A DNA stretch of 61,130 nt from Elusimicrobiota bacterium (lineage in GTDB: Bacteria > Elusimicrobiota > Elusimicrobia > UBA1565): NCBI GenBank assembly GCA_043819795.1, contig JBDREN010000030.1, positions 1-61,130 of the forward strand. Direction: 5' to 3'. The notes beneath the pieces were generated by a model. It was not told the origin of the DNA. It saw only the letters and a program-made list of their open reading frames with translations, and ran no database searches. A program made the position numbers and the translations under genes. The first letter of the stretch is position 1. Each line of letters opens with the position of its first letter. Of the stretch, positions 14,395 through 47,677 are shown piece after piece.

Positions 14395-15476
14395 CGGAGC
14401 GCCTCCCGAACCACCTCGGCCAAGGCGCGGCTGAGCGTCGCGGACGCGTTGAGGGCCTCGGCGCGCGCGAAGCTCACGCCCCGGCGCTCGGCCAGGCCCC
14501 GATAGAGGATGTCGTCGTCGTAGAGCGTCTCCATGTTGTCGGCGAGGAACCCGATCGGCGCCAGCAGCACGCTCCGGACGCCCTTGTCCGCGAGCTCGCC
14601 GATCACCTCGCCCGCGTCGGGCCCGAGCCAAGGATCATCGGCCGCTCCCAAGGCCTCGGAGGCGGGCCGCTCCCCGACGACTTCCGGAGGCGGCATTCCC
14701 TCGGCCGCGCCCACGCCCTCGGAGGCGGCATTTCCTCGGGTTAACCCTCGGTCACCGGAAGGCTCGGTCACACTTCCTCGCGGTAACGCTCGGTCGGTTA
14801 CGCGGCTCGCGCTCTGGTAGGCGAAACGCCAGTCGCCGTACCCGGCTTTGCGCGCGACCGCCCCGGCGGTGGCCTCGATCTGCCGGGAGTAAGGGTCATC
14901 CGCCGTCATAGAGCGCTTGGGCAGACTATGACCGGTGAGCAGTAGAACGGTGCCGGCGCGCATGGCCGCCGGGATCCGCGCGGAGGCTTCGCCGATCCGT
15001 TCGGCGAAGGCCTCGATCAGCAGGGGGTGGTCGCTCCAGCCGCGCACCGGGAGTATCTCCAAAGAAGCGGCCCGCTCGGCGACCGCGCGGGAGAGCGATC
15101 CCATGTAGGCGTCGAAACTCATCGGCGAACGGTATGGCGTCATCGGCAGCGCCACGACCGTTTCGTGGCCCCGCGCCGACATCCGCTCGACCGTGGAGGC
15201 GATGGTCGGCTCCGAATGCCGCATGCCGACGTACACGTCGAAATCGCCCTTCTCGCCGTCGAGCCGCGCCTGCAGCGCCCCGGCCTGGGCCTTGGTGATG
15301 TCGACGAGCGGCGAGCTCCGCCCCATCCTCCGGTAGCGCTCGGCGACGTCCCGGGCCAATTCATCCGGGACGGGCCGGCCGCCGCGGACCGCGCGCAGGA
15401 ACGCCGGGATGTCCTCGAGGCTCTCGGGGGCTCCATACGCCATAAGCAGGACCGCCACACGTCGTGCGCCCATCAT
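14391..15476 (-). CDS. hemH: Ferrochelatase carrying a ~52-aa repeat-derived insertion
   Basis: VLLMAYGAP, VGMRH, GHSLP, YQS...PWLGPD, PIGFLADNMETLYD. Confidence 0.92.
   Translation of the reverse strand: MMGARRVAVLLMAYGAPESLEDIPAFLRAVRGGRPVPDELARDVAERYRRMGRSSPLVDITKAQAGALQARLDGEKGDFDVYVGMRHSEPTIASTVERMSARGHETVVALPMTPYRSPMSFDAYMGSLSRAVAERAASLEILPVRGWSDHPLLIEAFAERIGEASARIPAAMRAGTVLLLTGHSLPKRSMTADDPYSRQIEATAGAVARKAGYGDWRFAYQSASRVTDRALPRGSVTEPSGDRGLTRGNAASEGVGAAEGMPPPEVVGERPASEALGAADDPWLGPDAGEVIGELADKGVRSVLLAPIGFLADNMETLYDDDILYRGLAERRGVSFARAEALNASATLSRALAEVVREALR
14638..14797 (-). repeat. Repeat family 1, in-frame copy inside hemH
   Basis: Modules nearly identical to 45500-45880; encodes DRALPRGSVTEPSG...EGMPPPEVVGERPASEALGAAD. 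Confidence 0.95.
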
Positions 15477-16513
15477 CGAGACGTCCACTCGTGCACCCAG
15501 TCCACGACCGCCCGCACGTGGCCGGGCGGGGTCTGAGGCAGGACGCCGTGCCCCAGGTTGAAGATGTGCCCGGGGCGTCCACCGGCGCGGCGGACCACGT
15601 CCCGGACCGCGGGCTTCAGCGCCCCGAGCGGCAGAAGCAGGTGCGTCGGGTCGAGGTTCCCTTGGATCGCCCGCCCGCGCCCCACGCGCCTCCAGGCCTC
15701 GTCGAGCGGCAGGCGCCAGTCCACACCGATGGCGTCGCCGCCGGCGTCGCGGAAGCTTTCGAGGAAAGGCGCCGTGCCCGTCCCGAAATGGACCGCGGGC
15801 ACGCCGGTCCGCGCGACGGCCCGCAGCACGCGGGCCGAATACGGCTGGACGAACCGTTCGTAATCCGTCTTCGACAGGGCCCCCACCCAGCTGTCGAACA
15901 GCTGGACCGCCTGAGCCCCGGCCGCGACCTGCGCCTTGAGATACTCGGCCGTCACGCCGGCCAGCTTCGTCATCAGGCTTCGCCAGAGCCCCGGCGCGGC
16001 GCGCATCATCGCTTTCGTATGGCGGTAGTCCCGGGAGGGCCCTCCCTCGATCATATAGCTGGCCAGAGTGAAGGGCGCGCCGGCGAATCCGATCAAAGGG
16101 ACCTCGCCGTCGAGCTCCCTGCGCACGGTCCTGACCGTCTCCAGGACGAAGCCCAGCCCCTCTCGCGGATCGGGCTCCCGCAGGCGCTCCACGTCCCGCG
16201 CCGCGCGCACCGGCGGCGTGACCGCGGGTCCCTCCCCCTTGAGGAACGCGAGGCGCAAGCCCATCGGACGAAGCGGCAGCAGGATGTCGGCGAAAAGGAT
16301 CGCCGCGTCCACCCCGAGGAGGCGGACCGGCTGCAGAGTCACCTCGGCCGCCGCCTCCGGGCTCTCGCAGAGCTCGAGCATGGAATATCGCGCGCGCAGG
16401 CGCCGGTACTGGGGCAGATAGCGACCGGCCTGCCGCATGAACCATACCGGGGTCGCGTCCACGGGCTTGCGCCGGCAGGCGCGCAGGAACCTCGTCTCCA
16501 CGGGAATTCTCAC
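15473..16513 (-). CDS. hemE: Uroporphyrinogen decarboxylase
   Basis: PVWFMRQAGRYLPQYR, IGFAGAPFTLASY, QLFDSW, FNLGHG. Confidence 0.97.
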   Translation of the reverse strand: MRIPVETRFLRACRRKPVDATPVWFMRQAGRYLPQYRRLRARYSMLELCESPEAAAEVTLQPVRLLGVDAAILFADILLPLRPMGLRLAFLKGEGPAVTPPVRAARDVERLREPDPREGLGFVLETVRTVRRELDGEVPLIGFAGAPFTLASYMIEGGPSRDYRHTKAMMRAAPGLWRSLMTKLAGVTAEYLKAQVAAGAQAVQLFDSWVGALSKTDYERFVQPYSARVLRAVARTGVPAVHFGTGTAPFLESFRDAGGDAIGVDWRLPLDEAWRRVGRGRAIQGNLDPTHLLLPLGALKPAVRDVVRRAGGRPGHIFNLGHGVLPQTPPGHVRAVVDWVHEWTSR

Positions 16514-16559
16514 GCCTTTATCGTATCATTTTCGCCCGATGGCCACGCGGGGGCCGGGT

Positions 16560-16587
16560 CTTCCTCGCGGTAGCGCTCGGTCGGCCG
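16560..16587 (-). repeat. Repeat family 1, short intergenic copy
   Basis: CTTCCTCGCGGTAGCGCTCGGTCGGCCG, one mismatch to 43917-43944. Confidence 0.8.
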
Positions 16588-16706
16588 CGCGCGCTATTTG
16601 ATATCATGGTGACGTTCGCAGGGAACTGATGGCGTCCTCGTTCGTACAAGAGGGCATGACAACACAAACGAATAGCCGCCCAGCGGCGGCACGCAGGGAG
16701 GACTCT

Positions 16707-17177
16707 ATGGCGGAGGCACGCGAGTTCAAACCGCTCAAGGAAGTCGGCACGATCCCCGTCACTGAATCGTCGGAGGTCCGGTTCTACGTCGACGAGTACA
16801 AGGGCTACCCCTACGCCTCGATCCGGACCTTCGTCAAGCGCGACAACTACGCCGGCCCCACGCGCTCCGGGCTGACGATGAACGTCGGCCTGCTCGGGAG
16901 CGTCCTCGAGGCGCTCGAGAAACTGCCGTCGGAGCCGGAGAGCACGGAAGACGTCGAGCTCGGGCGCTTCCCGAAGAAGACGGGCGTCGAGCTCGTCGTC
17001 CGGATCACGATCTACCAGGACACGACGGGGATCGATTTCCGGGAGTGGGTCGACGACGGCGTCTACAAGGGCTGGTCGAAGCGGGGAGTCCGCATCAGCT
17101 ACGGCGAGCTCGGGAAGGTGAAGCAGTACCTCAAGGAGATGTCGGCTTTTCTGAAGGCGAAGAAGGGAAAATCTTAG
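16707..17177 (+). CDS. Tandem PC4/YdbC-like ssDNA-binding protein
   Basis: Two PC4-like units (EYKGYPYASIRTF...PTRSGLTM; IYQDTTGIDFREW...WSKRGVRIS); GGAGG RBS. Confidence 0.75.
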   Translation: MAEAREFKPLKEVGTIPVTESSEVRFYVDEYKGYPYASIRTFVKRDNYAGPTRSGLTMNVGLLGSVLEALEKLPSEPESTEDVELGRFPKKTGVELVVRITIYQDTTGIDFREWVDDGVYKGWSKRGVRISYGELGKVKQYLKEMSAFLKAKKGKS

Positions 17178-18003
17178 CGGCGACCTTCTCCTCGATCCGC
17201 TTCATCAGCTCCCGCACGAAGGCGCGGTTCTCCCGGCCCTCGAGCATCCCCACGCCGTGCCCGGAGACCGCGCGCAGCAGCCAGCTCTCGCGGTGCCGCA
17301 GGAAGTGGGAGACGACCTCCGCCGACCTGAGAGCGTAGGGGTCGTTGAGCGACGCGGCCATGATCAGGGGCCGGTCGAAGGCGAGGACCGGCTCCCGGAT
17401 GAGAATCCCTTGATAGTCGTAGCCGGGTGAAAGCAGGATCGCGAACGGCACCGCCGGCTGCCGGACCGCCGCCCGCAGCGCCAGGTTGGCGCCGATGCTC
17501 GCGCCCGCGAGGACGACGCGCCGCGGCGGGATCCCCTCCCCATCCAGGAACTTGACCGCCGCGGCCAGGTCCATCTCGATCTTGGCCCAGTCCTCCGGCT
17601 CGTCGAACGTCGTGTAGCGCGGACCGCCGGACTCGCCGTGCCCGCGGGCGTCCAGCGCCAGGCTGCCCCAGCCGCGCTCGGCAAGTAACGCGGAGAACGT
17701 CCCCCATTCGCCGCGGCCCGCCCCGAGCCCGTGCAGCAGCACGAACACCGCGCCCCCCTCGGCCGGAACGTGGAAATCGGCCGCGATGCGGACCTTGTCC
17801 GCGGCCACGAACTCCACGCGCCGCGCCGCGTCTCGCCCGGGTTCCTCGGCAGACGCGTCGGGCTCGCCGGCGGGAGCCGCGGGGAGCCGGGAAGCCAGCG
17901 CCAGCAGAAGACCAAGGGCCCATCCCGCGCTGGGCCGAAATGCGCGGCCTGGATGGGACGAAGGCCCCTCCGGAAGCGGCGGCGATTCGGCTAAAATGTC
18001 CAT
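17131..18003 (-). CDS. Alpha/beta hydrolase, probably exported (start uncertain)
   Basis: LLHGLG, DARGHGES, nucleophile elbow GASIG, C-terminal GHG. Confidence 0.85.
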   Translation of the reverse strand: MDILAESPPLPEGPSSHPGRAFRPSAGWALGLLLALASRLPAAPAGEPDASAEEPGRDAARRVEFVAADKVRIAADFHVPAEGGAVFVLLHGLGAGRGEWGTFSALLAERGWGSLALDARGHGESGGPRYTTFDEPEDWAKIEMDLAAAVKFLDGEGIPPRRVVLAGASIGANLALRAAVRQPAVPFAILLSPGYDYQGILIREPVLAFDRPLIMAASLNDPYALRSAEVVSHFLRHRESWLLRAVSGHGVGMLEGRENRAFVRELMKRIEEKVAAKIFPSSPSEKPTSP

Positions 18004-18468
18004 ATGCGGTGCCTTCGAAGCTGGTGCGCCTCCTTTCTGGCGGGCGTCTTGGTCCTCGGCGCCGGGGCGACACCCGCGGCCGGCCACAACGCCCTCCGGA
18101 ACGCGGCCCTGACCGTGATCGCCGTGCGCCGGACAAGCACGGTCGAGGACCGCCACGCGGCCCTCGGGAAAGCGTTCGACGCCGCCCCGCGGTCCCTCCG
18201 CGATTCCGGGGAGCCCGGGGCGGGACGCCGATCCCTCTCTTCCGATGGGCGCTACTCCGTCCGCCGCAACTGGTTCCCGCCCTCGGGACGTTATCCCGCC
18301 CAAGCCCCGGCCTTCTCGATGCCGGATGTGTCGCTCCCGCCAGCCGCCCCCGGCCCCCTGGACCGCCTCCGGTCGGCGGCGCGAAGCGCCTTCGGGCCCT
18401 GGCGGGCCCTCCTCGAATACGCGTGGGGCGGCGCGTGGACCGGCGCGAGCGTCCTGCGCGCCCGGTAA
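18004..18468 (+). CDS. Hypothetical exported protein
   Basis: Signal-peptide-like N-terminus; TAAAAT 6 nt before the ATG; fills the gap between known genes. Confidence 0.5.
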   Translation: MRCLRSWCASFLAGVLVLGAGATPAAGHNALRNAALTVIAVRRTSTVEDRHAALGKAFDAAPRSLRDSGEPGAGRRSLSSDGRYSVRRNWFPPSGRYPAQAPAFSMPDVSLPPAAPGPLDRLRSAARSAFGPWRALLEYAWGGAWTGASVLRAR

Positions 18469-18551
18469 TTCAGCGCCGCAAGCTCGCCTTGCGGCGCTTA
18501 CACCTCGAGTTATCAAGAATCCCGTCGCAAGGATGCCGTTGCCCTTCCAGC
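18469..18551. repeat. Repeat family 2, copy 2
   Basis: TCAGCGCCGCAAG-N5-CTTGCGGCGCTTA...TCGCAAGGATGCCGTTGCCCTTCCAGC, aligns with 9929-10012. Confidence 0.85.
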
Positions 18552-18559
18552 GCCCGCAG

Positions 18560-19714
18560 CTAGCGCCAGGACTTCTCAGGACGCAGGCGCAGCCGGCCGA
18601 TGCGGAAGCGGTGCAGATTGATCCCGGGCTTCTCCCCGCTCACGAGCTGCGAGACCGTCCGGCCCACGAGCGGCGCGAACATCGGGCCGTTGCCCCCGAA
18701 ACCGGCCGCCACCCACGCGTTGGGCGTGCCGGGCAGCCGGTCGAGCAGGAAATCCCCGTCGGAGATGCGCGTGTAGTAGTGCGCCCTCCCCTCCATATCC
18801 GCGAAATCGGCCAGGTCCGGGATGAAGCCCTTGAGAAAAGCCCGGCACTTCCGCTCATAACCGTCGTCCGGGGGCACCGGCATCGCGGGATTGCGCTTCA
18901 CCGGGCCCTTGCGGTGGCAGCCCATCTTCAGGAAGCCGTGGATGTGGACGGGAAAGCCGTGGACCCCCTTCGCGGCCACCGCGAAGACCGGGAAGTGGGC
19001 CGGCCGGTAGCGCCCCTGGTTCCGGGGCGGCCGGAGGTACAGGCATTCCTGCTGGGTGATCGTCATCGGGACGCCCAGTTCGGAAAGGATCTCTTTGGTC
19101 CACGCGCCGGAGGCGAAGACGTAATTGGCGGCCCTCCAGGTCTTGCCTTTCGCGTCCCGCAGGCCCTGGACGCCGGCCTTGGTCCTGAGGATCTTGGCGA
19201 TCCGGACGCCGGGCTCGAGCCGTCCCCCGCTCTTCTCCACGCCCCGGGCGAAGGTCTCGATGGCCTTCTTCGCCCAGACCATGCCGCCGTCCGGGTGGAA
19301 AACCGCGAAGCGGAACGAGCGCGGCTTGAGCATGCGGTAGCGCTCGCAGACCTCCTTGGGTTTCAGCTTCTCGACCGGGATCCGCATCTCGCGGAGGACG
19401 TTGTAGGAGGCCTCCTCGTAGCGCCCGGGACCGACGGCCAGCTCCAGCATCCCGTTCTGAAGCAGGAGCTCGACGCGCGTATCGTGCTGGAACTGCTTCC
19501 AGAGCGGCTGGGTCCTGAGAGCGAGCTCCGTATAGAACGAGTCCTTCCCATGCGTGAGCCGGAACATGCGGGCGTGATCGTCCGACGAGCCTTGAGGGTT
19601 GGGGATGGCCACTTGGTCCATGACGAGGACCTTATGGCCTCGCCTGGACAGGCAATAGGCGGAGGCGGTCCCGATGATGCCTCCCCCCACGACGATCACG
19701 TCATAAGCGGCCAT
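18560..19714 (-). CDS. FAD-dependent oxidoreductase, monomeric sarcosine oxidase/SolA family
   Basis: YDVIVVGGGIIG, GSSDDHARMFR, GAW, DGDFLLD, GFGGNG. Confidence 0.85.
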   Translation of the reverse strand: MAAYDVIVVGGGIIGTASAYCLSRRGHKVLVMDQVAIPNPQGSSDDHARMFRLTHGKDSFYTELALRTQPLWKQFQHDTRVELLLQNGMLELAVGPGRYEEASYNVLREMRIPVEKLKPKEVCERYRMLKPRSFRFAVFHPDGGMVWAKKAIETFARGVEKSGGRLEPGVRIAKILRTKAGVQGLRDAKGKTWRAANYVFASGAWTKEILSELGVPMTITQQECLYLRPPRNQGRYRPAHFPVFAVAAKGVHGFPVHIHGFLKMGCHRKGPVKRNPAMPVPPDDGYERKCRAFLKGFIPDLADFADMEGRAHYYTRISDGDFLLDRLPGTPNAWVAAGFGGNGPMFAPLVGRTVSQLVSGEKPGINLHRFRIGRLRLRPEKSWR

Positions 19715-19826
19715 ACGAGTGGAAACTCCTATTTTTAAAGAATACAGATTATAACAAATTTGCGGCGGCGGGATTTGCGGGGGAAGCGCCTGGAATCCCT
19801 CGGCGCGTTTTTGTTACCTTAGCTCG

Positions 19827-21440: not shown

Positions 21441-21523
21441 GGGCGTCTAAGGGCTTTGAGTTTTGTGACTTATTCCTCGCCGCAAGAATGGGTTTAGTCA
21501 CAAAACTCAAAGCCTGACGCCCT
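21440..21523. repeat. Long AT-rich inverted repeat
   Basis: Perfect 19-bp arms 21452-21470/21496-21514 plus outer 8-bp arms 21440-21447/21516-21523. Confidence 0.9.
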
Positions 21524-21598
21524 CCCTAAAGGTCCCTTGACAACCGATTACGCCGTCTTTACACTTTTAATAACCCCTCGACGGAGTGGTATCCGACA

Positions 21599-24082: not shown

Positions 24083-24083
24083 A

Positions 24084-24308: not shown

Positions 24309-24343
24309 ATTCGGCCCTCGTCGGAATTTGGTAGAATATCGTC

Positions 24344-26990
24344 ATGCCAGCCGTCGGGAAGCAGGGGGGCGAGAGAACGCACGCCGACACCCCCCTGATG
24401 AGGCAATACAAGACGCTCAAGGCCGCCCACCCGCACGCCATCCTCTTCTTCCGTCTCGGCGACTTCTACGAGCTCTTCTACGAGGACGCCCAGAAGGCGA
24501 GCCCCATCATGGGCGTCGTCCTGACCAAACGCCAGGGCACCCCGATGTGCGGAGTGCCCCACCATTCGCACGCGAACTACCTCGCCAAGCTCCTGAAGGC
24601 CGGGTACAAGGTCGCCATCGCCGACCAGGTGGAGGACCCGTCCCAAGCCAAGGGCATCGTGCAGCGAGCCGTCACGCGGGTGGTGACGCCGGGGACGATC
24701 GTCGAGGATGAGCTCCTCCAGGGAGCCGCGACAAACTACCTGGTCACCCTCGAGGTCGACAGCGTGGGCTGGGGCCTCGCCTGCGCCGAAGTCTCGACCG
24801 GGGAGTTCTGGGCCACCCAGGCCATCGGCGACCACAACCACCTGCAGCTTTACTCGATCCTCGCCAAGCTCGATCCCGCGGAGCTGCTGGCCCCCCAAAA
24901 GGCCGTGGAGGAGCTCCGACTCAGGCACATCCTGAGCCCGCGGACCGTCATCTCGGAATGGAAGCGGACCCTCTCGGAAAGCGCGGTCCCGGATGCCTGG
25001 CCGAACCGGGATATCTGGCAGAACCGGCAGCTGGCGCTCAAGGCCGCCCTCACCACGCGCAGCTACCTGTCGGCGACCCAGACGCACCTGAAGGACATCC
25101 TCCGCCCGCGGTACCGGGAGTCGCTGCCCGAGATGCAGCTCGACGAGGCCGCGATCCGGACGCTGGAGCTCGTCGATTCGGTCGACGGCGGCCGCAAGCA
25201 CACGCTCTGGGGGGTGCTCGACAGGACCTGCACGCCCATGGGAAGCCGAAAGCTCAAGCACTGGATACTTCACCCCTCGACCGAGCTGCCCGAGATCGAG
25301 CGGCGCCTCAGCTGCGTGTCGGAGCTGGTGGAAAACAGCATCGCCCGCGGCAAGCTAAGGAGGTTCCTCGAGGAGATCGCGGACCTCGAACGGGTCATCA
25401 ACCGGATGGCGACTCGCTCGGCGACGCCGCGCGACCTGGCCGCCCTGCGCGACTCGCTGTTTCATATCCGCTCCCTCGAGGCGTGGCTCAAGGACGGCTC
25501 CTTCGCCTCGGCGCTCGCTTCGGCGGCCGACGGCCTTTCCGAGATCGAGAAGCCCCTCAAAGAGACCCGGGCGCTCCTGGACCGGGCGCTCGTCGACCAC
25601 CCGCCCGCGAAGCTCGCGGACGGGGGTCTTATCCGCGCCGGGGTCGACAAGACTCTGGACGAGCTCCGTGCCGTCAAGACCGACAGCCGCAAAATCCTCA
25701 AGCGCCTCGAGGATCGTGAGCGCGGCGAGACCGGCATCCCGTCTTTGAGGGTCGGCTATAATTCCGTCTTCGGCTACTACATCGAGGTCACCAAGACACA
25801 CACCGCCAAAGTCCCGGACCGCTACCTGCGCAAGCAGACGCTGACCAACGCCGAGCGCTACATCACCTCCGAGCTCAAGGAGCTCGAGGTCAAGATCCTC
25901 GGCGCCGAGGATAAGATCCTCCGAATCGAGGCGGGCCTGTTCGAGAAACTACGCGGCGACGTCCTCGGTCACGATGACGCCGTCAGCCGCTTCGCGGCCC
26001 TCATCGCCGAGCTCGACGTGCTCCACTCTCTCGCCGAGGCCGCCTCCGACAACGACTACGTGAAGCCGGAGGTGGATCTCTCCTACGAGCTGAGGATCGA
26101 GGACGGGCGTCATCCGATCGTCGAGGCGGCGCTGCCGTCAGGGACCTTCGTCCCGAACTCCATCGCGCTGGATGGGGCCGACCCGCAGGCGATGATCCTG
26201 ACCGGCCCGAACATGGGCGGCAAGTCGGTCTTCCTGCGCCAGAACGCGCTCATCGCGATCATGGCGCAGATGGGCAGCTTCGTGCCGGCCAAATCGGCCC
26301 GCGTCGGCGTCGTCGACAAGATCCTGACCCGCATCGGCTCGAAGGACCAGCTCGCCCGCGGCGAGTCGACGTTCATGGTCGAGATGCGCGAGACCTCCCA
26401 CATTCTCAAGGACGCGACCCTGCGCAGCCTGGTCCTCCTCGACGAGGTCGGGCGGGGGACGTCGACCTACGACGGGATCTCGATCGCGTGGGCCGTCATC
26501 GAGCATCTCAACAAGGCGGGGGCGGCCAAGGCCGAGGCCTCCTCCACGGAGGATTTTAGGCCGCGCGGGCCGCGCGTCGTCTTCGCCACCCACTACTTCG
26601 AGCTGACCGAGCTCGCCGACCTTCTGCCCGGCGTGCACAACATCAACGTCGAAGCGCGCGAGTGGACCAACGCCGAGGGGCGCACCGAGGTCATCTTCCT
26701 CCATAAGATCTCACCCGGACCGGCCGACCGCTCCTTCGGGATCCACGTCGCCGAGCTGGCCGGCGTCCCTCAGAGCTGTCTGAGCCGCGCGCGGGGAGAT
26801 CCTGCACGGCCTCGAGAACGAGGCGCGCGCGACGCCGCTCCCGTTCTCTGCCAAGCGGTCTCCGGAGCAGCCGAGCCTGCCGCTCTTCGACGAGCATCCG
26901 GTGCTCCACGAGATCCGCCTGCTCGACCCCAACGACCTGACCCCCCTCGCGGCCCTGGAGAAGCTCTCCGCGTGGAAGAAGCAGCTATGA
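24344..26990 (+). CDS. mutS: DNA mismatch repair protein MutS (+1 frameshift at ~26793-26796)
   Basis: TPLMRQY, FFRLGDFYELF, TGPNMGGKS, STFMVEM, DEVGRGTST, ATHYFEL; native C-terminus lies in a shifted frame ending TGA at 26990. Confidence 0.95.
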
Positions 26991-28834
26991 CGGCATCCGT
27001 CGTGCGTCCGCTCCCCGCCGACGTGGCCCGCCGGATCGCTGCCGGAGAGGTCATCGAGCGGCCCGCCTCAGTGCTCAAGGAGCTGCTCGAGAACGCGCTC
27101 GACGCGAGCGCCTCGAAGATATCGGTCGAGGTCCTGGGGGCCGGCCGGCAGCTCGTGCGGGTCTCGGACGACGGGGTCGGCATGGGGCCCGTGGACTGCC
27201 GGGCCGCGTTCGAACGCCACACGACGAGCAAAATCGCGAGGCTCTCGGACATCGAGACCCTCTCGACCTTCGGTTTTCGCGGAGAGGCCCTATTCTCCAT
27301 CGCCGCCGTCGCGAAGGTCTCGCTCACCAGCTGCCGCCGCGGCACGGGCAAGGGCTGGCGGGTCGAGATGCGGGGCGGCAGGCTCATCGCGGAGCGCGAG
27401 GCCCCCCCGGCGCAGGGGACGGCCGTCGAGGTACGCGACCTATTCTTCAACACGCCGGCCCGGTGCAAGTTCCTGAAGTCCGCCGCGTCCGAGCGGGGAC
27501 GCCTAGCCCGGGTCCTCGAAGAGGCCGCGCTGGCCAACCCCGGCGTCGCGTTCACCTACAAGTCCGAAGGGCGCGCGCTGCTCCGCTTCCCCGCGCACAA
27601 AGGGCTGGAGGGCCCCTCTGCGATGCGGGAGCGAGTCCGCGAGGTGCTCGGCGACACGCACGGCGACGGCATGCTGTTTGCCGAGGCCGGCCCGGCCTCG
27701 GGCGGGCTGTCGGTATCCGCGTTCGTCTCGCCCGCGGACGCGCTCCACGCCTCCCGGACCCTGCAGTTCTGCCTAGTGAACCGGCGGTCCGTGACGAACC
27801 GGACGGCCCAACAGGCGCTGTATCGCGCCTACGAGCCTTTCCGGCCGAAGAACCGCCATCCGGTGGCCGTCGTCTGCCTGTCGATCCCGCCCGACCGGAT
27901 CGACGTGAACGTCCACCCCACGAAACGCGAAGTACGCTTCCGGAACGACGGGGAAGTGTTCGAAGCCGTCGTCCGGGCTTTGTCAAAAGCCCTGCTGGAG
28001 TCCAAGGGCATCCCGACGCTGAAGGGCGGACATCCGGCCGTGGCCCGCGCGGCCGCGGCTCCGCCGCCGCACGGCCACTGGAGGGCGGGCGGCGTTGGCT
28101 CCCTCCCGGGACTTCGACACGACTTCCAGGCCTCGGGCGGGCGCGTGCGGGAGGGGACCGCGGCCTACGCCCCCACGCCGCCGAGCGCCGGAGCGCCGGA
28201 GCACGCCCTCCGGACGCCCGAGACGCGCCCATGGTTCGCCGATGCCGATTCCGCGCGCTTTCTCGGGCAGATCGAGCGCGCTTATCTGGTGTTCGAGGCC
28301 GAGGGCGGATTGCTCGTCATCGACCAGCACGCGGCCCAGGAGCGCGTGCTATTCGAACGCTACCTGACCGAGATCGAATCGGGGGCGGTATCGGTCCAGA
28401 AGCTCATGCTGCCCCTACCCGTCGAGCTCCCGGCGTCGGCCATCGCCGACGTGCTCTCCAGAAAGGGCCGCCTCCTGCGCGCCGGCTTCGCGGTGGAGCC
28501 GTTCGGGAAGACCACCCTGCACGTCACGAGCGTGCCGGCCCTGTTCCGGAAGGCGAAAGACGTCAGGGAGATGGTCCACAGCCTGCTCGACGGCCTGCTG
28601 GCGCCCGGCCCGGCCGCGGCCGACGTCCGGTACGACGCGACGGCCACGATCGCCTGCAAGGCCGCGGTGAAGGCCCACGATCCGCTGACCGCTCGCGAAG
28701 CCGTGCGCCTGCTGGAGGACCTGCGCCGATGCAAGGACGCCACCTGCTGTCCGCATGGGCGCCCGACGATGCTCTCGCTGGACCGGGGCGAGCTCGCCCG
28801 CCGCTTCGGACGCCCCGCCCCCCCGCCCCTCTAG
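26987..28834 (+). CDS. mutL: DNA mismatch repair endonuclease MutL
   Basis: IAAGEVIERPASVLKELLENALDA, TFGFRGEAL, DVNVHPTK, DQHAAQERVLFE, ACK, CPHGRP. Confidence 0.96.
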   Translation: MTASVVRPLPADVARRIAAGEVIERPASVLKELLENALDASASKISVEVLGAGRQLVRVSDDGVGMGPVDCRAAFERHTTSKIARLSDIETLSTFGFRGEALFSIAAVAKVSLTSCRRGTGKGWRVEMRGGRLIAEREAPPAQGTAVEVRDLFFNTPARCKFLKSAASERGRLARVLEEAALANPGVAFTYKSEGRALLRFPAHKGLEGPSAMRERVREVLGDTHGDGMLFAEAGPASGGLSVSAFVSPADALHASRTLQFCLVNRRSVTNRTAQQALYRAYEPFRPKNRHPVAVVCLSIPPDRIDVNVHPTKREVRFRNDGEVFEAVVRALSKALLESKGIPTLKGGHPAVARAAAAPPPHGHWRAGGVGSLPGLRHDFQASGGRVREGTAAYAPTPPSAGAPEHALRTPETRPWFADADSARFLGQIERAYLVFEAEGGLLVIDQHAAQERVLFERYLTEIESGAVSVQKLMLPLPVELPASAIADVLSRKGRLLRAGFAVEPFGKTTLHVTSVPALFRKAKDVREMVHSLLDGLLAPGPAAADVRYDATATIACKAAVKAHDPLTAREAVRLLEDLRRCKDATCCPHGRPTMLSLDRGELARRFGRPAPPPL

Positions 28835-28883
28835 CAGCCCGTGGCGAAAGTCTTCCGGGGCCTGCAATCGCCTGGAAGCGGCC

Positions 28884-29455: not shown

Positions 29456-29460
29456 AAAAG

Positions 29461-33351: not shown

Positions 33352-33360
33352 GCTCCCTCC

Positions 33361-35834: not shown

Positions 35835-37663
35835 CGGTCGTTCTCCTTGCCGGGGCTTAGAGCCCATTTCGGACGCCTCCAGCTGCGGCGAAACTCCTCC
35901 ATCGTCGCGGCGCGGGCGTCGTGCCGGTCTCCCCGGCCGTCCAAAAAAAGCACCCAGTCAAGCCGCTGGTCCGCGGTCCCGAACACCGCGTCGAATGTCC
36001 GGGCCAGCATGTTGGGCGACACCGACCGCCGGCCATAGACCCTCTCGCCCGGCGGCCGCAGGCCGCGCCCCTCATCATCCGGCGCGTAAGCGCGGTAGAT
36101 CAGCTCCGCGCTGGCGACCGCCTCGTCGGAGAGGAAATCGAACTGGTAGTCGTACGGCTTGCCGAACGCACGGAAGGCGCGCTCGAGCGCCCGGGCTTTT
36201 TCGCGCAGCCCGAGCCGAGGACGCAGAACGGCCAGGGCGTCGGCGGCGGCGACCCGGGAGAGGGGCGTCAGAACCACGCCGCCGGCGCGCTCGGAGGCCT
36301 CGAGCAGGCACGGGGCTCCGTCCTCCCCCTCTTCGGCGTTCCGGCGATACGCCTCCGAATGGCTCGCCCGCAGGCGCTCGTTCACCGCGTCCCCCTTGAA
36401 ATAGCGCCGGCGCTCATCCGCCGTCCCGGCGTAGAGCGCCGCATGGTGCCAGAATCCGGGCTGCCCGATGGCGCTCAGATACCGCTCGCGCCGCACAAGA
36501 AGGATGTCCCCCGGGACGAGCGCGCCGGCGACTTCCCGGGCCTGCTCCCGCGAGATCAGCACGTCGGGCCTCGGCCCGGAGGGCGCGTCCATCTGGAACC
36601 AGTATCGCAGCGTGTCGAGCGCGTAGACGACGCGCGAGCTCACCGATATCCCCTCCCATACCGGCAAGGGCAGCAGCAGGTTCCGGCGCGGCTCATACGG
36701 GGCCTTCACGGAGCCGTCCCAAGGGCCCGCCGCCGAGCGCAGCGCGAACGTGCCGGCGAAGGCTCCGTCGCGGACCAGCGCGAGCGCGGCGTCCGGCGGC
36801 ATGGGCCGGCGCCCGGAGCCCCGCGGCAGGAACTTGGCGTCGAGCTCCCGCTCGCGACGCCAGGACCGTAGCCCGCGTCCCACGCCTTTCTCGAGCGCCC
36901 GGGAGCCGCCGATGAATCGGTGGTAGGCGCGGACGGCGTCCGCCGCGTCCGAGGCCTCCGGGCCAAGAAAACGGCGTTCGAGCAGCGTGTAGCTGCCGGC
37001 AGGCAGGCCGAGTCCGCCGACGGGCTCGTCGAATAGTCTCCCGAGATTCGGGTCGCGGACACCGAGCTCCGTCCACTCCCGGACGAACCGCGCTTGGGCC
37101 AGGTAGGCGGCGTAGCCGACGAGGAAGGCGGCCTTTCTCTCAGCACCGTCCGCAAGTACGCCAAAGGCTCCGTAGCGAGCGAGCAGGGCGTCCAGCGCGA
37201 GCCAATAGTCCATCGCGCGGTTCCAAGCGCCGCGCGCCTCGGCACGGTACTCCTCGAAGAGGGAGGCCCGCTCGACGGCGGCCGGCGGGAACACCTGCGG
37301 ACGGCCGCGCGCGAAGCGAAGCGCCTCCAGCAGGCCCTTGCGCCAGCGCTCCAGCGCCTCGCTGTCCTCCGACAAGCGCTCCCAAAACCGGACCTCGAGG
37401 GGATGACGCCGGGCCCGCCCGCCGCCCTCCGGGACGGGTTCGCCGTCTTGGAGCAGCGGGTCCTCCCAGGGAGGCGCCGACGGGATGCCGAGATCGACCT
37501 CATCGGGCGCCTCGCCGCCCTCCACGGCGGCCGGCCAGCCCCGCGCCCCGCAGATCGAGAGCCCCAATACCAGCGCCGGCAGAGCCGCGAGCCGCCTCCG
37601 GCCGCTCCCCGACGACGTCCGGAGGCGGCACTTCCTCCCGGTAACGCTCGGTCGTCCGCTCAC
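35831..37663 (-). CDS. Exported YiiX/YebB-like permuted papain (NlpC/P60) family protein
   Basis: PGDILL, GFWHHAALY, GKPYDYQFDF, ASAELIY; GTG overlaps upstream stop. Confidence 0.75.
   Translation of the reverse strand: MSGRPSVTGRKCRLRTSSGSGRRRLAALPALVLGLSICGARGWPAAVEGGEAPDEVDLGIPSAPPWEDPLLQDGEPVPEGGGRARRHPLEVRFWERLSEDSEALERWRKGLLEALRFARGRPQVFPPAAVERASLFEEYRAEARGAWNRAMDYWLALDALLARYGAFGVLADGAERKAAFLVGYAAYLAQARFVREWTELGVRDPNLGRLFDEPVGGLGLPAGSYTLLERRFLGPEASDAADAVRAYHRFIGGSRALEKGVGRGLRSWRRERELDAKFLPRGSGRRPMPPDAALALVRDGAFAGTFALRSAAGPWDGSVKAPYEPRRNLLLPLPVWEGISVSSRVVYALDTLRYWFQMDAPSGPRPDVLISREQAREVAGALVPGDILLVRRERYLSAIGQPGFWHHAALYAGTADERRRYFKGDAVNERLRASHSEAYRRNAEEGEDGAPCLLEASERAGGVVLTPLSRVAAADALAVLRPRLGLREKARALERAFRAFGKPYDYQFDFLSDEAVASAELIYRAYAPDDEGRGLRPPGERVYGRRSVSPNMLARTFDAVFGTADQRLDWVLFLDGRGDRHDARAATMEEFRRSWRRPKWALSPGKENDR
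37600..37655 (-). repeat. Repeat family 1 copy at the 5' end of the YiiX-like gene
   Basis: GCCGCTCCCCGACGACGTCCGGAGGCGGCACTTCCTCCCGGTAACGCTCGGTC matches modules in hemH and mrdA. Confidence 0.85.
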
Positions 37664-38238: not shown

Positions 38239-38274
38239 CGCGTCTTGCCCCGCAAATACCCCCGCAAATACCCC

Positions 38275-38303
38275 TTGACCGACGAACCGCCCTGGCCTAT
38301 CAT
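38275..38303 (+). promoter_or_regulatory. Promoter TTGACC-17-TATCAT preceded by a 12-bp tandem repeat
   Basis: Hexamers upstream of the receiver gene; CCCCGCAAATAC x2 at 38248-38271. Confidence 0.55.
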
Positions 38304-38312
38304 ATGGTCAGA

Positions 38313-38697
38313 TATGGCGCGCATCCTGATTATCGACGACGACACCGAACTGGTGCAGATCCTCACCATGGCGCTGCAGTCCTGCCGGCACCAAGTCGCC
38401 TCGGCCGGAGACCCTGTGGCGGGGTTCGAGGTCTGCCGCAAGTTCCATCCGGACATCATCCTTCTCGACTACCATATGCCGGGGGACACCGGCGCCCACC
38501 TCTTCGAGACCTTCCGGCGCAACCAAGCGACCTCCCGCACCCCCATCCTCTTCATGAGCGCCATGGCCTCGCCGGAGCAAATCCTCGGGGAGGTGGCCGA
38601 TCCCGCCGTCTCCCGCTTCATCCCGAAGCCCATCAAGCTCGCCGAGTTGAAGAGGAACATCGGCGAGATGCTCGGCCCTGGCGGCGACGAGGCGTAG
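38313..38697 (+). CDS. Single-domain response regulator (receiver)
   Basis: ILIIDDD, DIILLDYHMP, PILFMSA, PKP. Confidence 0.92.
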
Positions 38698-38704
38698 CCG
38701 CCTC

Positions 38705-42935: not shown

Positions 42936-42965
42936 CCTTGTCGATCGCGGAACGGACGTCGCCCG

Positions 42966-43769
42966 CTAGGGTGTCAACAGCTCGCCGCTCGACGTCTCCG
43001 AATAAAGCTCCTGCCGGACGATACGGAATCCCTCCAGCGGCTCGGACGGGCCCGCTGGCGCCGCGGACGCCGATGCGTCGACGCGCGGCCCCGGACTCGG
43101 GGCGGATGCGCCCTCTCCAGACGGAGCAGCGACGCCCGCAAGAGCGGGGGGACCCAGCCGCAGCCAGTCACGTACGAGGGCCTCCGGTTTCACCGTCTGC
43201 TTCGGGCCGAACCGCAGCGTCAGGCCCAGGCATCCGGGGGCCGTCAGCGCCATGTTCAGTATCAGCGGGCGGGCGTCCACGCGCTCCACCCGGGTCCCGC
43301 CTTTCTTGAGCTTCTCGATCACGATCTCCTCGCGCCGCAGGAAATCCTCGAGCGTCCCCGCTCCGTCATCCGGAAACACGCCGCGGATCTCGTAGCGCAC
43401 CACGTTGACGCTTGCGTCAAGAGAGGGAAAGAACAGCGGGATGCGCCGGACGCCCACCATCGAGAGGCCCGTCTGCAAGGCCGGAGCCAGCGCCGAAGAC
43501 ACCTGCTTCGGCGCGAGCGCCGCGTCGAGCAGCAGATCGAAATACTCTGCGAGGCTCTCATAGCCCACCGAGATCGCCGGCCCGAAAGCCAGTTTCGGCC
43601 GCGGCCGCCTCCGCCGCCGATCCATCACGATCGGCAGTCCCGAGGCGAGCAACGCTCGCCGCAGCGACTCGATCTGCGCGAGATGCGTCAGGCGCCTCGC
43701 CTCCCCCCGGCGCGCCAGGCGCGCCCGGTAGCGGATTCGAGACGGCTTCTGAGCCCGTCTTTCAATCAC
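42966..43769 (-). CDS. Radical SAM-linked protein (TIGR03936/DUF2344-like)
   Basis: LTHLAQIESLRRAL, PRPKLAFGPAISVGYES.AEYFD; usual position between rodA and rne. Confidence 0.8.
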   Translation of the reverse strand: MIERRAQKPSRIRYRARLARRGEARRLTHLAQIESLRRALLASGLPIVMDRRRRRPRPKLAFGPAISVGYESLAEYFDLLLDAALAPKQVSSALAPALQTGLSMVGVRRIPLFFPSLDASVNVVRYEIRGVFPDDGAGTLEDFLRREEIVIEKLKKGGTRVERVDARPLILNMALTAPGCLGLTLRFGPKQTVKPEALVRDWLRLGPPALAGVAAPSGEGASAPSPGPRVDASASAAPAGPSEPLEGFRIVRQELYSETSSGELLTP

Positions 43770-43966
43770 GTGCCGTCCAGTCCTCCTTCCAAAGCGCCGA
43801 ACCGATCATTCGCTCCGGCGCAAAAACGGTCGACCGCTCCCCAACAACGTCTGGAGGCGGGCCGCTTCTCAACAGCGTCTGGAAGCGGCATTCCCTCGGG
43901 GTAACCCTCGGTCACACTTCCTCGCGGTAACGCTCGGTCGGCCGATCCCCCGTCAATAGAACGCAT
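43766..43966 (-). CDS. Possible 66-aa repeat-derived linker ORF
   Basis: ATG just inside the rodA end; TGA overlaps next GTG; encodes DRALPRGSVTEGYPEGMPLPD. Confidence 0.3.
   Translation of the reverse strand: MRSIDGGSADRALPRGSVTEGYPEGMPLPDAVEKRPASRRCWGAVDRFCAGANDRFGALEGGLDGT
43828..43944 (-). repeat. Repeat family 1 copy between rodA and the radical SAM-linked gene
   Basis: GGCATTCCCTCGGGGTAACCCTCGGTCACACTTCCTCGCGGTAACGCTCGGTCGG. Confidence 0.92.
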
Positions 43967-45290
43967 AGCGCCTCGAGTAGATGTTCGCGACGATTCCCAT
44001 CGAGAGCAGGGTGACGGCCAGGTTCGAGCCCCCGTAGGACACCAACGGAAGGGGGACCCCGGCCACCGGGACAAGGCCAAGACACATCCCCACGTTGACC
44101 AGCAGGTAGAACGCCGAGATCGCGGCCACGCCGCAGCAGACAAGGTACCCGTAGCGGTCCCGCGCGACCCGCGCCGTGTTCACGACCCGCCACAGCAGCA
44201 GCATGTACAGCGCCAGGACGGACATTGACCCGACGAACCCCATCTCCTCGCCGATGACGGCGTAGATGAAGTCCGTGTGGCGCTCGGGCAGGAAGCCCAG
44301 TCGCGACTGCGTGCCCGAGAAGACCCCCTTCCCCCAGAGTCCGCCCGAGCCGATGGCGATCTGCGCCTGTTGGACGTTGTAAGCGGCGCCCCGCGGATCC
44401 ACCTCCGGCACCAAAAACGCGACGAACCGGGCGCGCTGGTAGCCCTTCAGCTGGTGGTCGACGAGCGCTCCCGACCCGAGCCCGACCGCCAGGATGATGG
44501 CCGTCACGACGAAGTAAGGGGCCGGGGCATGAACGCGCAGCTGCAGCGCCAGCCTCCAGGCGATATAGACGACGAAGAAGATGCCGGCCACCGTCAGAAG
44601 CAGTGGAAGATCGAACTCCCGCAGCCGCAGAAAGAACCCCAGCGTCGCGGACGAGGCCGTCCACTCTGGCCGCAGAGACAGAAGCGTCCATAATAGGGGC
44701 AAAAAAAGCGCCACGGCGCCGTACGCGGTCATAGCCAGCAGGTGCGCGATATTCGCCCCGCCGCAGAAGAGCATCACCAAGAGCATGGGGAAGAACGTGA
44801 GCGCCGAGGAGAAATCCGGCTCCAACAGGATGAGCGCCAGGACCGGCAGCACGACGCCGAAGGCCCCCAGAACGTAGCCCACCGTGCTCGAGGCTTTTGC
44901 GCGGCGGTCGAGATAGGCCGCGAGGACGAGGATCATCACGATACGCGCGAACTCGGAGGGCTGAAAGGAGAAGTACGGGGACCGCAGCCATCCACGCGTC
45001 CCGCGCTGGACGTCCCCGACCAGGAGCACCAGAACCATGAGCCCGAGAGCAAGGATATAGAGGGTCTTCGACTGGTCCTGGAATATCTGGTAGTTGAAGC
45101 CCAGCCCAAAAACGAACAGCACGGTCCCGGCCCCGAGGGCGAGAAAATGGCGCTGCAGGATCTGCGAATAGTACGGCAACGGCGAGGCGGCCGACAGCAT
45201 GGCCACGCTCCCGACCAGGACAAGGCCCACGATAGCGCCCACGAGGGGCCAGTCGATGCGGCCGCGGAAGAGACCATGCTCCGATTTCAC
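43953..45290 (-). CDS. rodA: Rod shape-determining SEDS glycosyltransferase
   Basis: FQPSEF, EPDF, QIAIGSGG, LPERHTDFI, PLVSYGGS. Confidence 0.95.
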   Translation of the reverse strand: MKSEHGLFRGRIDWPLVGAIVGLVLVGSVAMLSAASPLPYYSQILQRHFLALGAGTVLFVFGLGFNYQIFQDQSKTLYILALGLMVLVLLVGDVQRGTRGWLRSPYFSFQPSEFARIVMILVLAAYLDRRAKASSTVGYVLGAFGVVLPVLALILLEPDFSSALTFFPMLLVMLFCGGANIAHLLAMTAYGAVALFLPLLWTLLSLRPEWTASSATLGFFLRLREFDLPLLLTVAGIFFVVYIAWRLALQLRVHAPAPYFVVTAIILAVGLGSGALVDHQLKGYQRARFVAFLVPEVDPRGAAYNVQQAQIAIGSGGLWGKGVFSGTQSRLGFLPERHTDFIYAVIGEEMGFVGSMSVLALYMLLLWRVVNTARVARDRYGYLVCCGVAAISAFYLLVNVGMCLGLVPVAGVPLPLVSYGGSNLAVTLLSMGIVANIYSRRYAFY

Positions 45291-47677
45291 TCTTGTTCTC
45301 CCGCGATGAGCGGCGTCTCCGGATCCGCGACGCCCCGCCGGCCGGCGTCCGGAGCCGGGGACTCGTTACGGGCCCGCCGTTCGAGGGGGCCGATCGGTCC
45401 CGAGGCCGTCCCGGGGCCGGGCCCGCTTCTCGGCTCGCCCCCCCCGCGCGGGGACGAAGCTTGTATGGAAGACTCCGCAAGAAGCTCGACAGCCCCCCGG
45501 GCCGCTCCCAAAGCCTCGGAGGCGGCACTTCCTCGGGGTAACCCTCGGTCGGCCGCTCCCAAAGCCTCGGAGGCGGCACTTCCTCGGGGTAACCCTCGGT
45601 CGGCCGCTCCCAAAGCCTCGGAGGCGGGCCGCTCGCCGACAATGTCCGGAGGCGGCATTCCCTCGGCCGTACCCACGGCCTCGGTTGCGGGTCGCTCCCC
45701 GACGACGTCTGGAGCCGACATTCCCTCGCCGGAAGGCTCGGTCACATTTCCTCGGGGTAACCCTCGGTCGGCCGCTCCCAAAGCCTCGGAGGCGGGCCGC
45801 TCGCCGACAACGTCCGGAGGCGGCATTCCCTCGCTGGAACGCTCGGTCACACTTCCTCGGGGTAACCCTCGGTCGGCCGTTGCTTGGTCCGGCCGGGAAC
45901 GGGGCGGTCTGCGGGCTGAAGTCAGGTTAAACGCCGCCTCGATGGCGCGTCGAGCGATAGGCCCGGCCGCCGAGGAGCCATGCCCGCCGTGCTCGACCAG
46001 GACGCTCACTGAGAAGCTGGGCTCCTCACCCTCCCGCCCCGCGAAAGCGACGAACCAGGCATGGTCCTCCCCGAGGGGGTTCTGGGAGGTGCCCGTCTTC
46101 CCATGGACGGCAAGGCCGGGTATATTCACCCTCCGGCCGGTCCCGTCCGTCACCACGCTCCGGAGGGCCCCGTGCAGAGCCTCCCACGTATCCGCGCGCA
46201 ACGCGACATGCCCCACCGCCTCGCCGCGATCCAGCGAGACGGTCCGCCCGTTGGGGTATTCCAGCTTGCTGGCGTAATAGGGGCGCCAGAAGGTCCCTCG
46301 ATTGGCGACGGCCGCGATCACGACCGCCATCTGTATCGGCGTCGCGAGAAGCTCTCCCTGGCCGATCGAGAGGTTCGCGGTGTCCCCGTCGTACCACCCG
46401 CGGTTGCGGGCCCGGCGAGCCTCGGGCCCGAAAAGATTCCCATCCTTCTCTCCGATAAGATCGATCCCCGTCTTGGCCCCGAGACGAAAGCGCCGGGCAT
46501 AGGACTCGATGAGGTCTCCCCCGGCGCGCAGGCCCATCTCATAGAAATATACGTCGCAGGAGTGCGTCAGCCCCTTCATCCACGCCACCCACCCGTGTCC
46601 CTTCTTCTGCCAGCACCGGAACGTGCGCCTGCCCAACCGGAACCACCCGCGGCAGAAAACCCGGTCCTCCGGCCGGACCCGCCGTTCTTCGAGCATCGCG
46701 GCGCCCACGATGATCTTGAACGTCGAGCCCGGGGAATACGTCCCCGAGATCGCCCGGTTGAACTCCGGCAGATTCGTGAGCTCGCTCTTCGCCCCGCCCC
46801 ATTCCGGCAGAAGAAATAAGTTCGGGTCATAGTCGGGCACGGACGCCAAAGCCAGGATCGAGCCATCACGCGGATCCAGGGCGACAACGGCGCCGCGCCC
46901 CGACGGCGAGTTCCGCAAGCCCTCCTCGACCGCCTCCTGGACGCGCGGATCGAGAGTGAGGTGAACATTGCCTCCGGGCTTCCAGGGGATCTGGCCGAGC
47001 TTCCGCTTGAGGTGTCCCTGGGCGTTCACCTCCATGCGGCTCTCTCCGTCGACGCCCCGCAGCACGGACTCATAGCGCTTCTCGAGCCCCGACTGCCCGA
47101 TCCACGAGTCCACCCGGTAACCGCCGCCCTTGAGCCGGCGCCAGCTCCGCTTGTCCATCTTGCCCAAATAGCCCAAAAGGTGTCCGGCGAACGCGCCTTT
47201 CGGATAGTAACGCCGCGCCTCCACGATCAGGTCCACGCCCGGATAGACGGTCTTGAGCTCCGACAACTTGAACATCGTCTTCAACGGAAGGCTCTCCGCC
47301 AAGTGGATGGCCGACCCTTCGCGCCGCGCCTCCTTCAGCAGCTCCAGCAGTCCATCCCGATCCCGGCGCAGCTCCTTCGACAGGCCTGCGGCCAGACCGC
47401 TCAGATGGGACGGGCCTTTGGCCTCGCCCGGCAGATAGATCAGCGAGAACGTCGGCCGGTTCGTCGCGATGACCCCCCCGTTGCGGTCGTAGATGCGCCC
47501 GCGCGGAGCCGTCTGCGGGATGATCTGAGTGCGGTTGCTTTCGGCCACTTGGGAATAGTAGACGTTCCTGATCACCTGGACGTGCAGCAGCCGCACGCCC
47601 AGGACGGCCACCGCGCAGTAGCAGACGACCCACAACAGGTTCAACCGCTCGTGAAGCGGGCCGCGCGCCGGTCTCAT
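45287..47677 (-). CDS. mrdA: Penicillin-binding protein 2 with repeat-derived C-terminal tail
   Basis: APRGRIYDRNG, STFK, SCD, KTGT; mreBCD-rodA synteny. Confidence 0.95.
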   Translation of the reverse strand: MRPARGPLHERLNLLWVVCYCAVAVLGVRLLHVQVIRNVYYSQVAESNRTQIIPQTAPRGRIYDRNGGVIATNRPTFSLIYLPGEAKGPSHLSGLAAGLSKELRRDRDGLLELLKEARREGSAIHLAESLPLKTMFKLSELKTVYPGVDLIVEARRYYPKGAFAGHLLGYLGKMDKRSWRRLKGGGYRVDSWIGQSGLEKRYESVLRGVDGESRMEVNAQGHLKRKLGQIPWKPGGNVHLTLDPRVQEAVEEGLRNSPSGRGAVVALDPRDGSILALASVPDYDPNLFLLPEWGGAKSELTNLPEFNRAISGTYSPGSTFKIIVGAAMLEERRVRPEDRVFCRGWFRLGRRTFRCWQKKGHGWVAWMKGLTHSCDVYFYEMGLRAGGDLIESYARRFRLGAKTGIDLIGEKDGNLFGPEARRARNRGWYDGDTANLSIGQGELLATPIQMAVVIAAVANRGTFWRPYYASKLEYPNGRTVSLDRGEAVGHVALRADTWEALHGALRSVVTDGTGRRVNIPGLAVHGKTGTSQNPLGEDHAWFVAFAGREGEEPSFSVSVLVEHGGHGSSAAGPIARRAIEAAFNLTSARRPPRSRPDQATADRGLPRGSVTERSSEGMPPPDVVGERPASEALGAADRGLPRGNVTEPSGEGMSAPDVVGERPATEAVGTAEGMPPPDIVGERPASEALGAADRGLPRGSAASEALGAADRGLPRGSAASEALGAARGAVELLAESSIQASSPRGGGEPRSGPGPGTASGPIGPLERRARNESPAPDAGRRGVADPETPLIAGEQE
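45500..45880 (-). repeat. Repeat family 1, largest array (two exact 51-bp units plus shuffled modules)
   Basis: GGCCGCTCCCAAAGCCTCGGAGGCGGCACTTCCTCGGGGTAACCCTCGGTC at 45500 and 45551, then further modules. Confidence 0.97.

Follow-up and report, generated by a model that had tools for sequence, protein, structure and literature searches.

A short double-hairpin repeat inside hemH and mrdA of an Elusimicrobiota bacterium, and a related branch at start codons

How can one short repeat stand inside two housekeeping genes with both reading frames left open, and how did it come to be there? The question is raised by a 61,130-nucleotide stretch of DNA from an Elusimicrobiota bacterium (the window, by which we mean the whole stretch analysed), which is contig C30 of a draft genome, G000, of 4.99 Mb, 66.8% GC and 241 contigs. 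The first-pass annotation had described five loci in the window as copies of four shuffled modules, A to D. All five were found close to where it had placed them, on the plus strand (exact bounds in Table 1), and the module sequences are real, with four, three, three and two exact occurrences of A, B, C and D. The shuffling, however, did not hold: A and B together form a unit of 51 bp, C with the beginning of D forms one of 54 bp, and D is not a part of its own but the right half of an interrupted right hairpin. What the five loci contain is one 51/54-bp unit, here called Y, standing alone, in tandem or nested. It consists of two abutting hairpins: the left one (L) reads GCCGC...GCGGC and corresponds to modules A or C, a single A follows, and the right one (R), module B, ends with the unit's last base. 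The unit thus begins at the foot of L and ends at that of R, and across the whole family such two-hairpin units measure 51–59 bases. Stepwise removal of whole units from the hemH array, the single 54-bp copy at 37601 and the 54[54] array at 43833 leaves 0 bases, so these loci are not assemblies of shuffled parts. In the mrdA array, four units were removed by script and the remaining 168 bp were parsed by eye as a 63-bp truncated start and a diverged nested pair. Y units differ in sequence from one another and end in GGTCG or GGTCA.

The right hairpin is conserved as a structure, through compensatory base changes. Among 69 distinct R hairpins, the terminal pair is C:G in 42, T:A in 23 and something else in four, and the inner pairs are Watson–Crick in 42/44 and 33/44, a level matched by 0 of 5,000 shuffles (the sequences are related and not independent). 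The internal loops of R read GA/GA on the minus strand and could presumably form sheared purine pairs.

That the repeat is dispersed, as first proposed, is borne out well beyond the window. A search of the genome by score (24 or above) returns 58 right hairpins, and the same search of its reverse returns 0; a pattern search returns 55 R hairpins, and the reversed pattern 0. Iterated BLAST gives 34 loci, so that copies are not confined to the five sites. The pattern occurs in 38 of 81 genomes of the order (reversed pattern, 0), in 27 of 251 genomes of a phylum sample and in at least 118 stretches of a species collection, nearly all of them Elusimicrobiota; relatives with the same motif carry the title Elusimicrobia. 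Copy number is highest in G209 (68 copies; judged by coordinates, the same assembly as G001), and a 97% complete genome, G021, has 27 R hairpins. Viral contigs gave 0 matches for the patterns of Y and of a sister branch, X, described below, plasmids gave only five weak partial matches (E 0.8–3), and Rfam had no match within the window.

Unit length fits the reading frame. Y units are a multiple of three (3n) long in 130 of 135 distinct sequences, the five exceptions being singletons, and each of the seven recurrent length classes is 3n by way of compensating loops (16+7, 18+5; 19+7, 20+6, 21+5; 22+7, 23+6); for this count L373 and L377 were dropped and L048 was kept as a 46-bp unit. The last, at L048:1484-1528, is a lone two-hairpin match in a genome titled Nomurabacteria and is either chance or a stray copy. 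A home-made coding test of 119 Y arrays placed 39 in frame, 24 in non-coding DNA and 56 at edges or undecided, with duplicate loci of this genome left out of the counts and six loci (L044, L048, L054, L083, L084 and L110) left out of the in-frame counts as probable chance matches in other phyla. The single orientation noted at the outset is therefore a property of the window and not of the family: 20 of the in-frame copies lie on one strand and 19 on the other, and Y units are used on both strands in at least five frames. In G209, called genes contain 41 of 54 copies, of which 27 would give AAPKASEAALPRDSARS-like peptides and 12 DRALSRGSAASEALGAA-like ones, and by eye from the translations in-frame hosts in relatives include L10, MiaB, TopA and RecQ. 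Within the window, the peptides DRGLPRGS, EGMPPP[DE]VVGERP and ASEALGAA do lie in open frames of hemH and mrdA. The further suggestion that the repeat generates new peptide segments stands at the level of the reading frame and is not shown as protein.

In hemH the insertion can be read against an empty site. The two halves of the protein are adjacent in all 31 other genomes with a hemH match; the QS..WLGP loop measures 60 residues here and 6–12 in 23 relatives (the motif was unmatched in six), and falls to eight once the 52 inserted residues are removed. H183 and E316 are invariant in the alignment. In the AlphaFold model of HemH, pLDDT is below 50 only at residues 224–277, with a mean of 85.9 overall; the 156-bp insert is accordingly predicted to form a disordered 52-residue loop, absent from the 23 relatives, with which the HemH fold is predicted to be compatible. 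In mrdA, the tail beyond the conserved motif is 223 residues long, compared with 42–65 in relatives (the motif was matched in 3 of 19 relatives' loci). The copy at 37601-37654 is probably coding too, at the N terminus of the Peptidase_C92-domain gene: the putative GTG start at 37663 overlaps the DUF5677 stop, and the start chosen by the gene caller lies downstream of the unit. Elsewhere, four of five unit sites of G209 are empty in congeners and one is held in common with G010. Entry in frame into housekeeping genes, in the manner of Rickettsia palindromic elements (RPE), was thus correctly proposed, with empty sites in relatives. It is very improbable that these loci are artefacts in which repeats were collapsed or misjoined into genes. 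The assembly is a draft of 241 contigs and no public contig spans the left hemH junction, but contigs of three public studies span the right one, one of them with 0 differences over 14712-14952; moreover, the frames stay open, the units differ among themselves, and dozens of in-frame copies occur in other genomes.

The flanks in congeners of G209 lie in variable linkers and are too diverged to fix the unit ends, which were therefore fixed from units nested in other family members. In these nested copies, 12 of 16 solo units ending in A come after G, and target duplication is thus absent. The Y target reads G|G/C, with G at position −1 in 95 of 115 left flanks, mostly preceded by C. More generally, the bases 5′ of the insertion resemble the unit's own terminal bases, mostly CG or AG for Y and TCA for X, and many units sit nested inside other hairpin repeats. 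Three kinds of setting were recorded alongside. Y units of L354, L375, L376 and L121 lie within short stretches that by eye resemble reverse-complemented tRNA 3′ ends. A 51-bp Y unit (L040; G000 C85:1183-1233) is in frame in an IS91-type transposase gene, its motif strand being the sense strand. A 54-bp Y unit inside a larger repeat with MITE-like ends (about 100 k-mer loci in the genome) seems to have spread along with that repeat (C131:97, C50:97, C61:1, C142:4325, C231:14354, C37:10685 and C190:40617).

The sister branch, X/Z, which the first-pass annotation had missed and which makes the family resemble start-codon repeats as well as RPE, has the R hairpin in common with Y and a different left hairpin (in X, TGGTCGC...GCGACCA). 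None of its units lies in the window; an example is G000:C165:4085-4137 (L164). Among 38 X arrays, 37 abut ATGA and 36 pass a gene-start test, and a stop/start overlap junction is present at 23 of the 38, against 20 of 1,500 random RTGA sites. The search pattern fixed one start-codon base for the 22 arrays from relatives; the 16 from G000 are unbiased, and all abut ATGA. A metagenome scan that used the right half only returned 28 loci, of which 24 abut ATG or GTG, one is cut off, one is interrupted and two are chance matches; by eye, the N termini of these targets resemble those of lepA, obgE, glyA, ptsH, ptsI, miaA and hemB. Pooled, 51 of 58 X/Z loci, or 48 of 55 independent gene families, stand at starts (L220, L234 and L233 were dropped before X targets and background were counted); the loci that fail comprise five open frames of 230–489 codons and two of only ten codons. 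By the home-made gene calls, starts make up only 20.5% of non-coding RTGA sites, so that removal of frameshifting copies alone does not account for the enrichment.

On the gene strand an X/Z unit forms a mini open reading frame that overlaps ATGA at both ends: 64 of 67 are open, 51 of 67 are 3n+2 long (43 of them 53 bp), and 40 of 67 carry a Shine–Dalgarno sequence of their own, GGAG or GAGG 4–9 bases before the ATG. At about ten X loci GTGA stands upstream and ATGA downstream, which indicates that the element supplies the A; one further locus, L227, reads GTGA...GTGA. Targeting through similarity to the Shine–Dalgarno region was considered and rejected, X targets being neither enriched nor depleted for such a sequence (19/58 versus 679/1,528). 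An RNA- or transcription-linked route, in which insertion takes place where paused RNA polymerase or initiating ribosomes expose the sense strand, or through RNA and reverse transcription, would direct X to starts. X at starts is always in the gene-sense orientation, and leaderless-looking X targets number 9/58 against 76/1,528 background starts by the same home-made calls; a pause consensus enriched at start codons would also be in keeping with it. This route is nonetheless improbable, given that Y lies on both strands in at least five frames, that a reverse transcriptase is present in only one of five carriers and that no Rfam family matched.

Taken together, these data identify the repeat as very probably a mobile, translation-neutral element. 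The best overall explanation, to which we give a probability of about 0.5, is a non-autonomous selfish double-hairpin unit that moves in single-stranded form through the action of a nuclease which recognises hairpins and is encoded elsewhere. A trans-acting enzyme would recognise the folded single strand, mainly through R, cut at the hairpin feet and join the unit to a short target, in whose recognition the element's own terminal bases would take part. Units would nest and form tandems because they contain their own target, and selection would tune their lengths to translation neutrality, giving a floppy loop in the case of Y and relayed translational coupling in the case of X. Two hairpins, a short target and no duplication are the reasons for choosing the IS200/IS605-type HUH class as the candidate, its chemistry as described fitting all three (PMC6006769); an HUH enzyme, most likely HUH/Y1, is a tentative choice, somewhat short of even odds. 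A bolder and slightly less probable proposal is that one minimal 50-bp element follows two translation-neutral lifestyles on a shared recognition hairpin, an in-frame 3n form and a 3n+2 form that actively targets start codons and serves there as a coupled mini-gene, with terminal bases setting the target whatever the kind of mobiliser; RPE and mycobacterial interspersed repetitive units (MIRU) would then be two settings of one mechanism.

The search for a mobiliser gave no linked gene. There is no recurring neighbour among about 114 loci. RAYT/TnpA-REP genes beside the copies, which had been named as a thing to look for, were not found: 38 of 39 Y1/Y2 loci checked, from the best 30 of more than 200 matches, have no unit nearby, none lies within 1.5 kb of Y1 loci, and the sole match at a Y1/Y2 locus is an insertion inside an IS91-type gene. 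IS110 is present in one of five carriers, where it is broken. Five RAYT-like genes of about 290–330 amino acids lie on G000 contigs C72, C102, C198, C96 and C140 (L032-L035, L037). In a test for lagging-strand bias in G000, with MITE-borne copies left out, every usable Y locus (10/10) falls on one and the same skew strand.

Several results weigh against the proposed single-strand mobilisation. As to structure and frame, the left hairpin has no clear covariation, single units have no folding advantage over shuffles (z −1.1 to +0.9), and stop-free frames are partly expected at 67% GC, being open in 61–105 of 114 units depending on the frame. As to the enzyme, neighbour clustering and solo left hairpins revealed no autonomous or parent element, and no gene in G000 is flanked by a left hairpin standing alone; most RAYT-like genes there are flanked by their own inverted repeats, which are unrelated to the unit and form separate multi-copy families; TnpB was not found in G000, PF01797 gave 0 matches in the carriers G021 and G046, and IS91 (PF04986) gave 0 in five carriers, although the control genomes gave no match either. 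The IS200-type guide tetranucleotide is absent 5′ of the left hairpin. In G209 the strand bias was not seen again (17/34, from noisy 20-kb skew estimates), and a diverged copy on C49 is oriented opposite to the G000 bias. Finally, the start-codon preference of X goes beyond what HUH chemistry alone explains.

Absence of a mobiliser would also suit a route with no dedicated enzyme, in which hairpins folded in the course of replication or repair are the sites of polymerase template switching, or of recombination and gene conversion, while selection purges frame-breaking copies. Local clustering points the same way, since the 61-kb window contains 5 of 10 independent Y loci (corrected P about 5e-6) and two unrelated repeat families likewise form local clusters. 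So does a match of both R-hairpin feet (9 + 8 bases) near the ColE1 origin (L352:1328-1359, minus strand; 0/200 shuffles in a post hoc test), at a motif that we take to be the ssiA/n'-pas priming site. Such a site has been described (PMC3167613). We nevertheless consider enzyme-free copying unlikely: whole units nest precisely with fixed ends at the hairpin feet, target bases covary with the element's own end, the copies of G209 are dispersed, and enrichment at start codons is far beyond neutral survival.

A different enzyme is also conceivable, the unit being a hitchhiker on systems of a small GIY-YIG nuclease and hairpin repeats and being moved by that nuclease. Small GIY-YIG genes occur in five of five carriers, many copies are nested in other hairpin repeats, and units adjoin two of the four matches in G046, nested there in hairpin repeats that we take to be dRS3-like. 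However, GIY-YIG matches occur in 12 of 14 control genomes too, the adjacency in G046 arises through the host repeat, and no unit lies near the small GIY-YIG genes of G000, G001, G021 or G084; we consider this route improbable. The unit moved as single-stranded DNA by a nuclease encoded elsewhere remains our preferred explanation.

Table 1. Features of the window, with strand of the repeat motif or gene
Feature	Position	Strand	Remarks
Y array, triple nested, in hemH	14641..14796	+	51[54[51]] = 156 bp = 52 codons; hemH reads antisense to the motif
hemH array, outer 51-bp unit	14641-14665 + 14771-14796	+	Whole-unit removal
hemH array, middle 54-bp unit	14666-14703 + 14755-14770	+	Whole-unit removal
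hemH array, inner 51-bp unit	14704-14754	+	Whole-unit removal
hemH, ferrochelatase, 361 aa	14391..15476	-	Pfam and NCBIfam; frame open through the insert
Right (R) hairpin alone, in the intergenic stretch separating divergent hemE and PC4-domain gene	16560..16583	+	Left hairpin not recognised
Single 54-bp Y unit, N terminus of Peptidase_C92-domain gene	37601..37654	+	In frame if the gene starts at GTG 37663
Peptidase_C92-domain gene, likely with the 54-bp unit ahead of a predicted signal segment	35831..37663	-	Pfam
Nested Y array 54[54], 108 bp	43833..43940	+	Intergenic: rodA (43953-45290) / DUF2344/TIGR03936 gene (42966-43769)
Y array, C-terminal tail of mrdA	45501..45875	+	51 + 51 + 63 (truncated) + 105 (nested, diverged) + 105 (nested) = 375 bp = 125 codons
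mrdA, penicillin-binding protein 2, 810 aa	45287..47719	-	Pfam and NCBIfam

Other repeats and one gene irregularity were recorded in passing. L355-L358, L381 and L382 are a diverged branch, found in another taxonomic family of the class, that has longer C-rich R loops and a different left hairpin and does not stand at evident start codons. At G000 C102:33931, C190:34199 and C90:17762 lies a longer repeat whose right end is R-like and which has a hairpin of G/C runs, possibly a distant fourth branch. Two unrelated short GC-rich repeat families of about 45 and 63 bp lie on G000 contigs C83, C218 and C36 and on C140, C155 and C131, each locally clustered, the 63-bp family having a strand bias of 22/24 on the C-rich strand. 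Simple tandem repeats with 12-bp and 27-bp periods, at 59086-59181 and 52584-52671 of the window, are unrelated to the double-hairpin family. At 24344-28834 (plus strand) a single open reading frame of 1,496 codons fuses MutS and MutL; a MutS-like C terminus lies in another frame, and its stop overlaps the mutL ATG near 26987-26990. The fusion looks like a one-base slip in the G run near 26793-26796, either real or an assembly error.

If one element does lead both lifestyles, the family offers a substrate for finding the mobilising enzyme. The exact ends, covarying hairpin, short target and kept lengths make movement and start-codon finding directly testable with a 51-base oligonucleotide. Judged by the sequences, such insertion may also provide core proteins with new loops and tails, here ferrochelatase and penicillin-binding protein 2. 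In practice, the inserts mislead gene-start calls and domain annotation in Elusimicrobiota.

Among known repeats, the first-pass annotation had likened the element to the repetitive extragenic palindromic (REP) and BIME repeats; membership among these is not supported by the evidence: the GTAG/CGTC tag is absent, head-to-head dimers are lacking, and the Y1/Y2 transposase loci examined almost all lack an adjoining element. REP/BIME, TnpA-REP (RAYT) and non-autonomous derivatives of IS200/IS605 are described in PMC6006769, PMC3733652 and PMC8266576. With these, as described there, the family shares hairpins that are short and imperfect, an arrangement in clusters and mosaics, some copies within genes, the lack of target duplication and a plausible single-stranded substrate for an HUH enzyme. 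Unlike REP/BIME in those descriptions, its units lack the tag at the hairpin foot, are joined head to tail and nested rather than as inverted dimers, and are mostly intragenic or at starts, with no unit-flanked RAYT or TnpA/TnpB found. Unlike IS200/IS605 derivatives, the left end begins at the hairpin, guide tetranucleotides are absent and no parent insertion sequence with the same ends was found. A MITE was rejected because the ends are the feet of two separate hairpins rather than terminal inverted repeats and there is no target duplication. Neisseria REP2 also has two internal stem–loops and gives downstream genes a ribosome-binding site as well as an ATG (PMC3184786), but as described there it is longer and carries a promoter, and no in-frame coding branch is reported in that description.

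The closest parallels are RPE for Y and MIRU for X/Z. RPE (Ogata et al. 2000, as summarised in PMC10969869 and PMC3184786) are in-frame palindromic repeats in unrelated genes, for which those summaries give no established mobiliser. Y resembles them, as so summarised, in being a short palindromic repeat in frame in unrelated housekeeping genes that encodes a recurrent peptide in a tolerated loop. It differs in its unit length of 46–57 bp, compared with about 105–150 bp, in having no CGTC-tagged end, and in its two abutting hairpins, self-nesting up to three deep, use of both strands in at least five frames, start-codon sister branch and other phylum. MIRUs (Supply et al. 1997, as summarised in PMC12548453 and PMC3184786) insert at start codons with −4 coupling and measure 51–54 and 77 bp, mostly 53 (PMC3558156). 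On these accounts the X/Z branch is alike in being mostly 53 bp, tandem-prone and at start codons, with a mini open reading frame coupled by a −4 overlap. MIRUs are described, however, with tetranucleotide direct repeats; X units show an apparent ATGA repeat, but the GTGA...ATGA loci suggest that the element supplies the A. X/Z also differs in occurring in Elusimicrobiota, with an R hairpin in common with a 3n branch that invades coding sequence. The R-hairpin pattern gave at most four scattered matches per genome in 201 Actinomycetes genomes, MIRUs themselves being compared by description only.

The family was rightly called undescribed, as far as searches outside subscription journals and supplements go: these returned no publication on it, nor any on Elusimicrobia with repetitive extragenic palindromic repeats. 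Each behaviour on its own, RPE-like or MIRU-like, is known; the two together on a single covarying hairpin, with lengths compensated to 3n and 3n+2, have apparently not been described. In the accounts cited, RPE and MIRU are separate curiosities whose mode of spread is not established, and here both behaviours meet in one family.

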